Shown: positions 26,831 through 32,166, counted from the first letter of the stretch. The stretch: 64,000 nucleotides of DNA from Eshraghiella crossota (GCA_963590075.1 CAVANK010000001.1:5394-69393); one strand, 5' to 3'. Made by a program: numbers and translations. The notes: generated by a model from the letters alone, not told the origin.

Positions 26831-26859
26831 TTGACGTTTTACGCATAGTTTGATACAAT
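26831..26859 (+). promoter_or_regulatory. sigma-A-type promoter of the recombinase gene
   Basis: TTGACG, 17 nt, TACAAT. The -35 overlaps the second of two GATATATTG direct repeats (26812-26820, 26825-26833). Confidence 0.5.
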
Positions 26860-26888
26860 TATCTTATCCAATCACGCGAGGAAAATTT

Positions 26889-27962
26889 ATGACAAACTAT
26901 TTCACCGAAAGGGACAAATACCTTGCAAAGCGTTTGCGCGTTTTGAGAGACCAACTTCCAGAGTTTTGCGAGGAGTTTTTTGTGGGTATCGAACCGCAGA
27001 CTTCACCGCTTACGAGGCTCAATTATGCGTACGATTTGCGCATATTCTTTGACTATTTGCTCAAAAACGTGCGTGCTTTCAGAGATTATAAGGACGTTTA
27101 CGATTTCGTCGTAGAGGATTTGTCAAAAATCACTCTCGGCAACTTGGAAGCATACGTGGAATACCTCTCTTATTACGAGTTTGAAGGCAAAGAATACACC
27201 AACGCCGAGAAAGGCAAAGCGCGCAAACTTTCCACTATCCGCACCTTTTTCAAGTACTATTTCAATCACGACCGTATTCCGTCCAACGTATCGGCAAAAC
27301 TCACTATGCCCAAACTTCACGACAAGGACATTATCCGCCTTGAAAAAAAGGAAGTCGAACGCATACTCGACGCGGCGGAAACGGGCAACGGTATGACGGA
27401 ACATCAGCGCAAAATTCAACGCAACACTCGTGCGCGCGATTACGCAATCGTGACGTTGCTTTTGGGTACGGGCATACGTGTCAGTGAGTGCGTGGGGCTC
27501 AATCTCAACGATATAGATTTTGAGACAAACGCCTTCACTGTCACTCGAAAAGGCGGAAATCAAGCCATTTTGTACTTCGGAGACGAAGTTCGCGACGCAC
27601 TTTTGACCTATATCGACACCGAGCGCAAGGCACTTATAGACAGATGTCAAAAGATAAACACGGGAGACAACGACGCGCTGTTCTTGTCGCTACAAGTCAA
27701 GCGTATTTGCGTGCGTGCGGTGGAAAACATCGTCAAAAAGTACGCTCAAACCGCCGCTCCGCTCAAAAAAATATCTCCGCACAAACTTCGTAGCACGTAC
27801 GGAACGAACCTATACCGCGCCACGGGTGATATATATCTCGTTGCCGACGTATTGGGACACCGAGACGTCAACACCACAAAAAAACACTACGCCGCAATCG
27901 AGGAAGATCACCGCAAACTTGCCGCAAAGGTAGTCAAACTTCGTAGCAACGACGACGATTAA
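26889..27962 (+). CDS. tyrosine site-specific recombinase (XerC/XerD/phage-integrase family)
   Basis: 357 aa from the ATG at 26889 (GAGGA RBS). N-terminal SAM-like domain. Catalytic R (TGIRVSE), HxxR (HKLRST), H...Y (GHRDVNTTKKHY). Confidence 0.85.
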   Translation: MTNYFTERDKYLAKRLRVLRDQLPEFCEEFFVGIEPQTSPLTRLNYAYDLRIFFDYLLKNVRAFRDYKDVYDFVVEDLSKITLGNLEAYVEYLSYYEFEGKEYTNAEKGKARKLSTIRTFFKYYFNHDRIPSNVSAKLTMPKLHDKDIIRLEKKEVERILDAAETGNGMTEHQRKIQRNTRARDYAIVTLLLGTGIRVSECVGLNLNDIDFETNAFTVTRKGGNQAILYFGDEVRDALLTYIDTERKALIDRCQKINTGDNDALFLSLQVKRICVRAVENIVKKYAQTAAPLKKISPHKLRSTYGTNLYRATGDIYLVADVLGHRDVNTTKKHYAAIEEDHRKLAAKVVKLRSNDDD

Positions 27963-28284: not shown

Positions 28285-30246
28285 ATGGATATTTCTTCGG
28301 TCAACAGCGACCTCATACGCGGTAACGTCACGACAATCATTCTCGGTTGTCTGTGGGAAGGCGACAAGTACGGCTATGAGATTATGAAAGAAATCGAGGA
28401 CAAGAGCAATTCGCAATACGTCCTCAAACAAGCCACTCTTTACAATCAGCTCAAACGACTTGAAAAGCAAGGGCTCGTTTCCTCATACGACGGCAATCCC
28501 GACGATACCGGCGGTGGCAAACGCAGATACTATTCCCTCACGGGCGAAGGCAAAGCCTATCTCAAAAAGGAAAAGAGCGAATACGAGTATTCGCGCACCA
28601 TTTTGGACAAACTCGTTTCGGCGCAAGAGTACGACTTCACCGCGCCTATTCCCTTCGATGCGAGCGAATTGCGCCCCTACGCCAAACGCGACACCGAAGA
28701 CAAGCCCAAAGTGGTTTATAAGGAAAAACTCGTCGAGAAAAAAGTTTTCTTTGACCGCTACGGCAACGAAGTGAGCGAAGAGGACGCCGACGCACTCAAA
28801 GAAAAGGCACTTGCCGACGACGAGCAAGCACGCCTCACCGAAGAACAACTCAAAAAAGCGGAAGACGACGCCCGCCAAAAGGACGAGCAACTTCGCTTGA
28901 AAGAGGAGCAAGCTCAAGAAAATGCCGAAAAATTGCGTCAACAAGAGGAAGAAGCTCGCCAAAAGGACGAGCAATTGCGCCAAACGGAAGAGCAATTGAG
29001 AAAGTCCGAAGAAGACCGCCAATTCGTCAAATCTATGCTCCGTCAAATGGAAGAAGAAAAGATGCGTGCCGAAGAGCAAAAGCGTCTTGAAGAAGAGGAA
29101 CGCAAGCGCAAAGAGGAAGAAGAGCAAAAACGCCTTGCCGAAGAAGCGGAGCGCAAACGCCAAGAGCAAGCAAAACCCGCTCAAACTCTTGAAGAAATGT
29201 TTGCCAAACTCGATGCGGAGAGCGAATACAATCGTGGCGAACAACCTCTTCATGTATATCACTACGACAACGTTCAGCCTCAAGAGCATACATACCTCAA
29301 CGGCTACAACGCTCAACCCGAACAAACCACGGGACGCGCGCAAACGTCGCTCAAAGACATTTTCAAGCAACTTGACGAAAAAGAGGCTCAAATAGACGAC
29401 AAACTTGCCAAAGAGCAAGAGGAGCAACAAGCTATCGAGGCGCAACGCATTGCCGAGCAACGAGCGATGCAAACCGCACAAGAGCAAGCTTACGCCCCCA
29501 CCCCGCAATCCGACGCGCACTATATGCCTGCCGAGATCGAAACTCGCAATCAAGCGTACGACGAACCGAGCGATAAAGGCAAATTCGTGACGTCCGCGGT
29601 CGTCAATCGTCAAGAAGGCGGATTTGAATACGAAAAAGACGACGTCAACTATCGCGAATTCTTCGTATCTCTTGCCGACCAAAATCAAAAAGAAGAGGTC
29701 AAAGAGGAAAAACCGCAACAACAAGAGTATTCCGACAGCGACATCAAGACGAGATTGTATGCAAAGGGCTTCAAAATCCGCCCGTACGACAGAGGCAACA
29801 CCTCGGAGTACTACACGTTCAACTTCATACAATCCAATCGTCTCAACCGCGATACTTTCCTCATCATTCTTGCGTTCTTCGTCGCAGAAGTCGCAATTAT
29901 GTGGCTATCGCTGTTTTCAAGAATAAGCTACGCTTATTTCTTGCCGATTTTGCTCGTGGGAAGCGCGCTTTGCCTCATTCCGACGGTTATCTATATGATG
30001 AACCCGACAAGGCGCAAACGTGCCAATTTCAATTTCAAACTGTCAATTCTCAACCGCACGATGTTGTTTATAGAATTGACCGTGGTATGTATCCTCATCG
30101 GCTTCTTCGGACTCGGAGCAAACGTCAACGATATGGATCTCATTCTTATGTCGATAATACTTCCGATGGTGCTCCTCACCAACCTCCCGTTGAGCTCTCT
30201 CATCTACTGGTTGCTTTACAGAACCAGAAAATACCATACTGCATAG
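28285..30246 (+). CDS. PadR-family winged-helix domain fused to a long E/K/Q coiled-coil region and a C-terminal 4-TM anchor
   Basis: 653 aa. N-terminal ~100 aa are PadR-like (GYEIMKEI...ATLYNQLKRLEKQGLV...RRYYSLTGEG). aa ~170-330 are heptad-like EEQLR/ARQKDEQLR repeats. The last ~115 aa have four hydrophobic helices. Confidence 0.75.
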   Translation: MDISSVNSDLIRGNVTTIILGCLWEGDKYGYEIMKEIEDKSNSQYVLKQATLYNQLKRLEKQGLVSSYDGNPDDTGGGKRRYYSLTGEGKAYLKKEKSEYEYSRTILDKLVSAQEYDFTAPIPFDASELRPYAKRDTEDKPKVVYKEKLVEKKVFFDRYGNEVSEEDADALKEKALADDEQARLTEEQLKKAEDDARQKDEQLRLKEEQAQENAEKLRQQEEEARQKDEQLRQTEEQLRKSEEDRQFVKSMLRQMEEEKMRAEEQKRLEEEERKRKEEEEQKRLAEEAERKRQEQAKPAQTLEEMFAKLDAESEYNRGEQPLHVYHYDNVQPQEHTYLNGYNAQPEQTTGRAQTSLKDIFKQLDEKEAQIDDKLAKEQEEQQAIEAQRIAEQRAMQTAQEQAYAPTPQSDAHYMPAEIETRNQAYDEPSDKGKFVTSAVVNRQEGGFEYEKDDVNYREFFVSLADQNQKEEVKEEKPQQQEYSDSDIKTRLYAKGFKIRPYDRGNTSEYYTFNFIQSNRLNRDTFLIILAFFVAEVAIMWLSLFSRISYAYFLPILLVGSALCLIPTVIYMMNPTRRKRANFNFKLSILNRTMLFIELTVVCILIGFFGLGANVNDMDLILMSIILPMVLLTNLPLSSLIYWLLYRTRKYHTA

Positions 30247-30309
30247 CAAAAATCGTCGAAGTGGCAATGGCAACACGCACTCGTGCGTATTGCCAATAGC
30301 CACTCTTGA

Positions 30310-30525
30310 TTTATTGCTCTACTACCGCGCAACCGATACACGCTATCAGTTCGTGCAAGGATAAAACTCCCGCCACAGTTGCGCTATATCGCTTGCTTGG
30401 TGTTTCGGCTACCGCCTAAATTGCCACGCTACCGCTCGCAATGATATGGAATATTCCACTTGTCATTCCGAGGAGCAACGATAGTTGCACCGTGGGAATC
30501 CAGCGTAGCGCAAAAAATATCACTA
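30310..30525. repeat. mosaic intergenic repeat, locus E (upstream of the tRNA-Trp promoter)
   Basis: Collinear with 23360-23560. The 31 nt at 30373-30403 match 23469-23499 with 1 mismatch. Long hairpin at 30435-30472 around the palindrome GGAATATTCC. Ends with a single AATATCACT (30516-30524). Confidence 0.8.
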
Positions 30526-30561
30526 TATGATGACAAAGTAAAACTAATTGGGCTCAAATTA

Positions 30562-30590
30562 TTGACTAAAATAAATACAGTTGATATAAT
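30562..30590 (+). promoter_or_regulatory. consensus-like sigma-A promoter of tRNA-Trp
   Basis: TTGACT, 17 nt, TATAAT, ~22 nt upstream of the tRNA 5' end. Confidence 0.7.
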
Positions 30591-30612
30591 ATTTAAGCAT
30601 TAAATCTCACAA

Positions 30613-30687
30613 AGGGGAGTGGCTCAACGGTAGAGCAACGGTCTCCAAAACCGTTGGTTGCGTGTTCGAATCGCGTCTCCCCTGCCA
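30613..30687 (+). tRNA. tRNA-Trp (anticodon CCA)
   Basis: Acceptor AGGGGAG/CTCCCCT, anticodon loop CTCCAAA, T-loop TTCGAAT, encoded CCA. Confidence 0.9.
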
Positions 30688-31093
30688 CGAAGAAGTACTT
30701 TGGTACTTCTTCTTTTTTTGCAGTCTTTCCGCGATTAGAACACGCAACGCATACGCGACGGAACTACACTCCTTGCGTCTGCGGTTTCGTGTGACATTTC
30801 GTTTTGCAAATTACATTTGCACACTCCATTATTCCAGTCGCCTTGCGACCTCACGAATCGCGTCTCCCCTGCCACGAAGAAGTACTTTGGTACTTCTTCT
30901 TTTTTTGCAGTCTTTCCGCGATTAGAACACGCAACGCATACGCGACGGAACTACACTCCTTGCGTCTGCGGTTTCGTGTGACATTTCGTTTTGCAAATTA
31001 CATTTGCACACTCCATTATTCCAGTCGCCTTGCGACCTCACGAATCGCGTCTCCCCTGCCACGAAGAAGTACTTTGGTGCTTCTTCTTTTTTA
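30667..31093 (+). repeat. 187-bp tandem repeat (2 full identical units plus a ~50-bp third start), each beginning with the last 21 nt of tRNA-Trp
   Basis: Unit starts at 30667, 30854 and 31041. Units 1 and 2 matched at every base when compared by eye. Confidence 0.9.
30689..30719 (+). terminator. rho-independent terminator of tRNA-Trp (first of three copies)
   Basis: GAAGAAGTAC-TTTG-GTACTTCTTC followed by T7. Repeated at 30876-30906 and, with one stem change, at 31063-31093. Confidence 0.85.
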
Positions 31094-31108
31094 TATTTAA
31101 TATCTTTC

Positions 31109-31137
31109 TTGCAAACTTCCGCAATATTGTGTACAAT
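31109..31137 (+). promoter_or_regulatory. promoter of rnhA ending 6 nt before the start codon (possible leaderless mRNA)
   Basis: TTGCAA (31109-31114), 17 nt ending in TGTG, TACAAT (31132-31137). ATG at 31144, no SD. Confidence 0.5.
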
Positions 31138-31143
31138 GTAAAT

Positions 31144-31626
31144 ATGAAAAAGAAAGTTGAAATCTACACTGACGGTGCGTGTTCGGGCAATCCGGGCATT
31201 GGAGGCTGGGGTTGCGTTATGCTCTACAAAAGCCACAAAAAAGAGGCAAGCGGAGCGGAACAATCCACCACCAACAACCGCATGGAACTCACCGCCATCA
31301 TACAAGGGCTCAAAATGCTCAAAGAACCGTGCATCGTCACCGTATACAGTGACAGTGCCTATTCCGTCGAACCGTTTTTGCAAGGCTGGATAAACGGTTG
31401 GATTATGCGCGGTTGGCGCACGGCAAGCAAGGACGAAGTCAAAAACGTCGATTTGTGGAAGGAACTTCTCTCTCTTATGCAAATTCACGAGGTCAGTTTC
31501 GTCAAGGTCAAAGGACACGCCGACAACGAGCTCAACAACCGTTGCGACTACCTTGCCCGCACCGCGATTAAGGATTTGCAAAAGACTCTGCCGACCACCC
31601 TTCCGTCTATTCCAGACGGCATTTAA
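31144..31626 (+). CDS. rnhA: ribonuclease HI
   Basis: 160 aa, RNase H motifs (IYTDGACSGNPG, NNRMELTA, SDSAY, GHADNELNNRCD). Start trimmed from the ORF-track 30991, which reads through the repeat. Confidence 0.9.
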   Translation: MKKKVEIYTDGACSGNPGIGGWGCVMLYKSHKKEASGAEQSTTNNRMELTAIIQGLKMLKEPCIVTVYSDSAYSVEPFLQGWINGWIMRGWRTASKDEVKNVDLWKELLSLMQIHEVSFVKVKGHADNELNNRCDYLARTAIKDLQKTLPTTLPSIPDGI

Positions 31627-31683
31627 TACGATTAGATGTCGCAAAAAACGACAAATACCACTCAGAAACCAAGGAGGCACAAT

Positions 31684-32166
31684 ATGAAAAAATTCAACGT
31701 AAAACATTTGTATTGGATGATTCCCACACTTGTTATTGCCATCGTTTTGCTCGTGCTTGAATGCCTTCCCAACGGCGTAGAAATGAAATTTATGTGGCCT
31801 ACTGACGGCGATACGTTTGCATCGAAAACCGATTATTATCCGTATTTTAACGATATGCCCTTCGGATACGGCAATTTCGCGCCGATATTTATCGGAATAT
31901 TTACGATTGCGGTCATAATACTTTGTATAACCAATATATTTGTTTACAAAAAAGGCATAGATATCGCAATCGTAGTTTTGAACGCACTCAAACTTATCGG
32001 AAGCGCAGTTGAATTTATCTTCTCTCGCACTGCAATAAACTGGGCGGTATTTGCACTCTCAATCGTGTTTACGGTTTATAGTTCGGTTGAGCTTGCGTTT
32101 AGGATAAAGTCCGAAAAGTCCACCGCTTCCCCGACCGATACGCCGATTGACGTGCCACAAGACTAA
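31684..32166 (+). CDS. hypothetical 4-TM membrane protein
   Basis: 160 aa from the ATG at 31684 (AAGGAGG RBS). Hydrophobic helices, no family recognised. Confidence 0.55.
   Translation: MKKFNVKHLYWMIPTLVIAIVLLVLECLPNGVEMKFMWPTDGDTFASKTDYYPYFNDMPFGYGNFAPIFIGIFTIAVIILCITNIFVYKKGIDIAIVVLNALKLIGSAVEFIFSRTAINWAVFALSIVFTVYSSVELAFRIKSEKSTASPTDTPIDVPQD

Follow-up and report, generated by a model that had tools for sequence, protein, structure and literature searches.

Tandem 178-bp repeats at tyrT of E. coli, together with the RtT RNA, have been described for decades, and we know of no accepted function for them. RtT is a stable RNA that is set free when the transcript of the tRNA operon is processed. 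The tRNA 3' external-transcribed-spacer (3'ETS) RNAs also come from tRNA transcripts, and one of them, 3'ETS-leuZ of E. coli, is an sRNA sponge. Integrases that target tRNA genes generate a direct repeat that runs from the T-loop through CCA.

The E. coli comparison was run on NC_000913.3, where RtT corresponds to rttR (Rfam RF00391). The tyrT/tyrV locus contained a 178-bp unit in 3.1 copies, and the units open with the 3' 19 nt of tRNA-Tyr. The Rfam RtT model, used on this locus as a positive control, matched 4 units with 133-138 bits. The annotated rttR ends precisely with the fragment's CCA and carries inside it a reverse complement of the T-arm (19/22), with the mismatches in the T-loop. 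In the Rfam consensus structure of RtT, the helix formed by this complement and the fragment closes the RNA and leaves ...CCACCA free.

A tandem array behind a tRNA-Trp gene was analysed here in the window, by which we mean the whole stretch of DNA under study (64,000 nt). The first-pass annotation of this DNA had offered precedents for the array and had left out the closest one, the 178-bp tyrT repeats of E. coli with their RtT RNA. We lean slightly towards reading the array as a conserved, tRNA-Trp-linked non-coding module, which would produce by read-through an RtT-like RNA with a tRNA-like 3' end.

Anatomy of the repeat array and its surroundings

As shown in Table 1, the array lies between an intact tRNA-Trp gene and rnhA. 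Tandem Repeats Finder reported a 187-bp period at 30667-31092 with 2.3 copies (2.28), 99% matches, 0 indels and a score of 845, in agreement with the exact period and the unit starts (30667, 30854 and 31041) of the first-pass annotation. Its statement that the first two units are identical was borne out at 187/187 positions (30667-30853 against 30854-31040). Unit comparison likewise confirmed that the third unit is cut off past its terminator: it was the same as unit 1 over 52 nt except for an A to G change in the terminator stem (GGTAC to GGTGC), after which it diverged into the rnhA promoter. In three other assemblies the T-run of unit 3 is one T longer.

The first base of the repeat is C56, which belongs to the T-loop of tRNA-Trp as placed at 30613-30687 by ARAGORN and the Rfam tRNA model. 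Each unit contains the last 21 nt of tRNA-Trp (F), an intrinsic terminator and a 134-nt element, here called X. A 76-nt piece of the non-tRNA part occurred exactly twice in the window, with 0 occurrences expected by chance, and no further copies of X beyond the two were found inside the window. All three array terminators were detected by the terminator scan. The fold z of the whole unit was -5.2, and the long hairpin per unit that had been noticed earlier was present in the predicted minimum-free-energy fold.

Table 1. Features of the tRNA-Trp repeat locus, numbered from the first letter of the window.
Feature	Position	Strand	Basis or remark
tRNA-Trp promoter, TTGACT-17-TATAAT, TG before the -10	30562..30590	+	11/12 consensus positions; hexamers conserved in relatives
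Intact tRNA-Trp, CCA anticodon, encoded CCA end	30613..30687	+	ARAGORN; Rfam tRNA 66.8 bits
F1, C56 (T-loop) to CCA of the real tRNA, first 21-nt copy	30667..30687	+	Repeat comparison
Terminator 1, 10-bp stem, 4-nt loop, T7	30689..30719	+	Terminator scan
X copy 1, conserved non-coding, 134 nt	30720..30853	+	Homologs in at least 16 distinct sequences
F' of X copy 1, reverse complement of tRNA-Trp 47-65, 18/19	30730..30748	+	Sequence comparison
Long imperfect hairpin in X copy 1, tip GGA/UCC invariant	30740..30792	+	Predicted fold
Palindrome TGCAAAT-TAC-ATTTGCA	30805..30821, also 30992-31008	+	Overlaps the '-35' of the first-pass annotation
F2, 21-nt tRNA 3' copy ending in CCA	30854..30874	+	Repeat comparison
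Terminator 2, same as terminator 1	30876..30906	+	Terminator scan
X copy 2, same as copy 1; its F' at 30917-30935	30907..31040	+	Repeat comparison
F3, third copy of the 21-nt tRNA 3' end	31041..31061	+	Repeat comparison
Terminator 3, A to G in the stem making a G-U pair, T6; unmutated in other assemblies	31063..31092	+	Terminator scan
rnhA promoter TTGCAA-17-TACAAT; flank, outside the unit	31109..31137	+	Promoter scan
rnhA, ribonuclease HI; flank	31144..31626	+	NF001236, 206 bits

The three-core array was also present in two independent MAG assemblies (L001 and L002), in which the third terminator was unmutated. The contig of assembly L003 stopped 2 nt short of a unit start, the kind of break to be expected where an assembler runs into a repeat. 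The copy number has some independent support, but it rests on short-read assemblies, all of which are MAGs.

The tRNA-Trp cassette (promoter, tRNA, terminator and X) sits between the PadR-like gene and rnhA, and its orientation there differs from species to species. It was co-directional with rnhA in the window, L004, L008, L009, L013, L022, L026, L027 and L092, and opposite to rnhA in L005-L007, L010-L012, L014-L016, L018, L019, L024, L089 and L091. The orientation differed even among genomes with 98-99% identical RnhA, and since the flanks of the cassette differ, this is not a simple in-place flip. Among the loci inspected, the rnhA promoter TTGCAA-17-TACAAT occurred in the co-directional form only. 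There are 6 nt between its -10 (TACAAT, 31132-31137) and the ATG at 31144, with no recognisable Shine-Dalgarno sequence, and the rnhA mRNA may be leaderless. The MAG contig L025 (1569-2727) carried two convergent tRNA-Trp genes (1933-2007 on the plus strand and 2513-2587 on the minus strand), between which lies a second copy, 70% identical, of the 3' end of the PadR gene; either a true duplication or a chimera assembled from both orientations of the cassette could explain this arrangement. Past the PadR-like gene, about 150 nt of intergenic DNA (30247-30410) were about 80% conserved in relatives and contained a strong hairpin (GAAGUGGCAAUGGCAACACGCAC...GUGCGUAUUGCCAAUAGCCACUC) with a fold z of -3.4 and no Rfam match. 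An imperfect 51-bp tandem repeat at 29071-29170 (2 copies, 80% matches) sits in the Glu/Lys/Gln-rich centre of a 653-aa PadR-domain membrane protein.

Conservation and copy number in related genomes

The neighbourhoods of rnhA were taken from 80 species-representative genomes. The gene order PadR-like gene, tRNA-Trp, rnhA was common to a clade of gut Christensenellales MAGs, and in many of these X was found 3' of tRNA-Trp with 71-87% identity. The search of relatives for the non-tRNA part that the first-pass annotation had proposed thus recovered X in at least 16 distinct related Christensenellales sequences, in every case bound to the PadR-tRNA-Trp-rnhA locus. When a metagenome collection was scanned with an X-specific pattern, 14 loci were obtained, and 14/14 lay directly 3' of tRNA-Trp in the locus of the PadR-like gene and rnhA. 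The X unit had no blastn match in phage and plasmid collections. Three pattern matches in viral contigs were judged to be chance, as they fell within coding sequence, had no tRNA and showed no nhmmer similarity. An origin as a MITE or small IS derivative was rejected because X occurs at a single locus only and the direct repeat is 52 bp long and tRNA-derived.

X had a mean identity of 77%, against 58% at the four-fold sites of rnhA in the same genomes (78 pairs), and it was more conserved than these sites in 71 of the 78 genome pairs. X evolves more slowly than synonymous sites and is therefore constrained. After removal of the tRNA-derived F', X was still 79% identical, and the first 10 nt past the T-run, an internal near-neutral comparator, showed about 50% identity. 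X was missing or truncated in L004, L005, L007, L008, L022 (a long-read MAG), L026 and L015; its loss or truncation in several lineages means that X is dispensable. The comparison of loci indicates that the module has been inherited together with tRNA-Trp across related Christensenellales.

The 16 sequences shared one order, namely tRNA, terminator, X, F (21 nt) and terminator, often followed by a partial further X. In each species F and the terminator tracked the variant of the species' own tRNA, either CGAATC with a GTAC stem or CGAGTC with a GTCC stem, and substitutions in F were seen in 4/16 sequences. Because F and the terminator match the own tRNA variant, the 52-bp direct repeats have been homogenised within genomes, that is, they show concerted evolution. 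The tRNA-Trp/rnhA junction, which the first-pass annotation had proposed to compare among relatives, did vary in copy number, with 0, about 1.3 or 2.3 units. There were zero units in L004 (RnhA 99% identical), L005 and L007, one unit in L092 (RnhA 98.75%) and L006, and two full units only in the window, L001 and L002. Tandem duplication in itself is ordinary. Since the units are 100% identical and close relatives have 0 or 1, the best explanation for the second full unit is that the 52-bp direct repeats underwent an unequal crossover in the recent past, and the zero-copy genomes can probably be accounted for by the reciprocal deletion. The plain duplication considered in the first-pass annotation therefore fits the step from one unit to two, with its identical copies and relatives at 0 or 1, and does not account for the conserved unit itself.

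The contigs of L003, L011, L016, L017 and L019 end in the tRNA-Trp 3' end, within about 25 nt past it, or 2 nt before a unit start. These contig ends fit unresolved repeats or copy-number heterogeneity in the samples concerned, and tandem units may be more frequent than they look in the assemblies. In L014, an exact loop inversion distinguishes terminator 1 from terminator 2 (GTCCTAAAAGGAC versus GTCCTTTTAGGAC). Hairpin-mediated template switching, or flipping, between the inverted tRNA-derived segments on either side of terminator 1 may lie behind this difference.

In two distant species, L042 and L051, RnhA shares about 60% identity with that of the window. Their order was tRNA-Trp, terminator, reverse complement of the tRNA 3' third (21/23 and 14/16 in L042 and L051, respectively), a middle of 100-150 nt, the last 18-19 nt of the tRNA, and a different terminator. 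The covariance model of X (R1) barely recognised these middles or did not recognise them: L051 scored 18.8 bits (E about 0.03), and in L042 only the tRNA-derived part was matched. On this weak evidence, the modules of L042 and L051 appear to be analogous to X, and at best remote homologs. As the fragment is followed there by an unrelated terminator, the repeat consists of the tRNA part only, and the plan resembles that of a transcription unit whose 3' end is tRNA-like, and not a passive copy of the flank.

Predicted RNA, its proposed synthesis and alternative explanations

The single mismatch of F' to tRNA-Trp 47-65 (18/19) falls in the T-loop. Across species the flanks of F' were invariant, and three positions opposite T-loop 57-59 varied freely. 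When the sequence was folded from the tRNA end to the next CCA, the predicted closing helices were CGCGAUU:AAUCGCG (F' with F) and GCAG:CUGC, with UCUCCC in an internal loop and CCA at the terminus. The F':F helix was predicted in 14/16 homologs, each of which was folded independently. The long-range model adds CGCA:UGCG and GCGRC:GYCGC; 97.8% of its cells were paired, and one pair switched from A-U (8 sequences) to G-C (7). In a model with the local long hairpin, 92.6% of cells were paired, with one compensatory cell and an outer stem that was not conserved, and this model appears to fit nearly as well as the long-range one. With nearly every paired column invariant, covariation is unable to confirm the closing helix; a blind search for covarying columns in the 16 sequences was too noisy, since these come from few clades. 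In two lineages GCAG had changed to GCGG, which keeps the pairing with CUGC only as G-U and on the tRNA-sense strand, and the C to U change in column 11 is another one-sided change that pairs only as G-U on that strand. Such changes give mild support to a plus-strand RNA. The predicted fold of X with F is plausible, and pairing of F' with F would be automatic if F' were merely a decayed inverted copy of the tRNA.

The GCAAAT and TTTGC motifs of the palindrome were kept in all X homologs with a spacer of 2-4 nt, the 3' half being misaligned by one column between two groups of homologs. The palindrome, in which no covariation is possible, may act as an RNA hairpin or be bound by a protein.

From the observed anatomy, conservation, concerted evolution and copy-number change we infer how such a module may be transcribed, processed and folded. 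RNA polymerase from the strong tRNA-Trp promoter would pass terminator 1, transcribe X and F, and halt at the next terminator. F' would then pair with F through the two predicted closing helices, closing the RNA and exposing the pyrimidine-rich acceptor strand and CCA. Its 3' end would resemble that of the tRNA itself and would be trimmed by the same enzymes, and the resulting RNA would display the acceptor strand of tRNA-Trp with CCA. Terminator 1 looks strong (10-bp stem, T7), and read-through may therefore be low. The RNA may be a decoy for a factor that binds tRNA 3' ends, may modulate the maturation of tRNA-Trp, or may be a by-product that the cell tolerates. The tRNA-Trp 3'-end mimic suggested in the first-pass annotation would live on in spirit, as a predicted RNA of about 155 nt composed of X plus the fragment, and not as an RNA of about 70 nt from an internal promoter.

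That shorter RNA would come from an independent sRNA gene in every unit, driven by TTGCAA-17-CATTAT and made of a T-arm-like hairpin, the acceptor 3' strand with CCA, and the terminator, a reading that we regard as very unlikely. The motif was present where the first-pass annotation had located it, 21 nt upstream of each fragment, and a small hairpin, GUCGC-CUU-GCGAC, precedes the fragment. However, the motif matched only 8/12 consensus positions and was not reported by the promoter scan of the window. Its first hexamer was not conserved, being TCGCAA, GCGCAA or GTGCAA in other species with a spacing of 16 to 19 by eye; what is conserved there is the GCAAAT...ATTTGC palindrome. Conservation moreover spans all of X, including the 5' F', which a transcript of about 70 nt would lack. 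The possibility that the two full units are an assembly artefact, so that the unit is real and its true number different, is also improbable. The same three-core array was obtained from three assemblies (the window, L001 and L002), and the window cannot simply be a copy of L001 and L002, since its distal terminator is unlike theirs. The points in favour of an artefact are that the identical stretch of 239 bp exceeds short reads, that the L003 contig breaks off just before a unit start, that contigs of L011, L016, L017 and L019 terminate in the tRNA 3' end or the terminator, and that every supporting assembly is a MAG.

Insertion of an integrase at the T-loop, which would once have duplicated the core from T-loop to CCA and left X as fused att arms in a scar or in tandem copies, is highly improbable. 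This origin would fit a direct repeat that begins in the T-loop (C56) and extends through CCA, as well as L004, the closest relative, which resembles an empty site; recombination between the 52-bp repeats, however, yields empty sites equally well. The sole nearby recombinase (26850-27962, 2.7 kb upstream) is Xer-like, scored under every equivalog cut-off, and is present with 82-98% aa identity in genomes with 0, 1 or 2 units. X was absent from the phages, plasmids and viral contigs searched, its metagenome matches lay in one locus, and it is constrained relative to synonymous sites. The unrelated terminator behind the fragment in L042 and L051 also speaks against an integrated element. The tiny integrative element, or its scars, proposed in the first-pass annotation was thus not supported, the recombinase being a syntenic Xer-like core gene and X being locus-bound and constrained. 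For annotation, the lesson is that repetition of a tRNA 3' fragment behind a tRNA gene need not be the footprint of an integrase. In the main rival, which we consider unlikely, X has no role as an RNA. It would be a decayed tRNA-Trp pseudogene in inverted orientation, together with a spacer, and would persist for a DNA-level reason while the repeats are homogenised passively. The reason could be the need for a back-up terminator after a very strong tRNA promoter, or for a site such as the invariant palindrome. By eye, the first ~53 nt of X read as reverse-complement tRNA-Trp with an internal deletion (F', CGACGG, CACTCC); the conserved columns are mostly invariant and not covarying, X is dispensable in several lineages, and each unit adds one terminator. 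Yet a back-up terminator need not have 134 nt at 79% conservation, and the F'...F-CCA design is found again, around unrelated middles, both in L042 and L051 and in RtT of E. coli, where a stable RNA is annotated.

Other readings of the unit were rejected. Plus-strand ORFs over the units depend on the tandem junction, and a minus-strand ORF, whose ATG is complementary to CATTAT (30827-30832), is lost elsewhere, where the site is CGTTAT or TGTTAT. The F' region (30738-30749 and 30925-30936) was 11/12 complementary to 31173-31184, codons 10-13 of rnhA. F' as an antisense regulator of rnhA was rejected because the site encodes a conserved DGACSG motif and the synonymous Ala position has not stayed complementary in 8/13 species; the energies of the F'/rnhA duplex exceeded internal controls in some species only. 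The match was judged to be coincidental, DGACSG resembling the tRNA T-arm through coding constraint.

Comparison with known systems

The read-through RNA proposed for X, like the 3'ETS RNAs, would be a functional RNA from a tRNA 3' trailer that ends at an intrinsic terminator. The 3'ETS RNAs differ in that they sit before the first terminator and have no tRNA 3' fragment, no anti-T-arm and no tandem repeats. The array shares with att core duplications the direct repeat from the T-loop to the 3' end and the empty sites in relatives. In contrast to these, it has neither an element-borne integrase nor cargo, and X is confined to a single locus, constrained and vertically inherited.

The closest likeness is to RtT of E. 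coli. In both cases the unit lies on the same strand directly 3' of a tRNA gene, in tandem (178 bp in 3.1 copies in E. coli, 187 bp in 2.3 copies in the window), and begins in the T-loop with the last 19-21 nt of the tRNA including CCA. Both also carry a reverse complement of the T-arm with mismatches in the T-loop (19/22 in RtT, 18/19 in the window). In RtT, and by prediction in the window, this complement pairs with the fragment and closes the RNA, leaving ...CCA single-stranded. A search of 29500-32000 with Rfam at E<=1 returned tRNA only and no RtT match, and model R1 had no match on the E. coli tyrT locus. As each model misses the locus of the other, the module in the window is an analogue of RtT and not a member of that family.

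It is possible, although rather doubtful, that RtT and the Christensenellales module belong to one general, unnamed class of tRNA-distal RNAs that are closed by pairing of a T-arm complement with a copy of the tRNA 3' end. If so, such an RNA would be a tRNA-specific mimic of the acceptor strand plus CCA and could act as a decoy or sensor for readers of tRNA 3' ends, among them processing RNases, the CCA-adding enzyme, the synthetase and toxins directed at tRNA. Another possibility is that the 19-nt anti-T-arm pairs with unfolded pre-tRNA. Tandem amplification would then tune the dosage. The shared construction consists of the 3'-end copy, the T-arm complement with free T-loop positions, the closing helix and the change in copy number. 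Its occurrence in a non-homologous module, with another tRNA, in a distant phylum and under purifying selection suggests that the design itself is selected. The second case provides a comparative handle on the role of this design and a defined search pattern for further examples.

The two systems differ in their tRNA, which is tRNA-Trp in the window and tRNA-Tyr for RtT, and in their hosts, which are gut Clostridia of the Bacillota (Christensenellales) and Enterobacteria, respectively. In the window a strong intrinsic terminator follows every CCA, whereas no such hairpin with T-run is seen in the sequence of the E. coli units; unlike the E. coli locus, the module in the window has no conserved tpr-like ORF. 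Judged by the arrangement of its parts, the module in the window is RtT-like by construction, and this parallel across phyla appears to be new.
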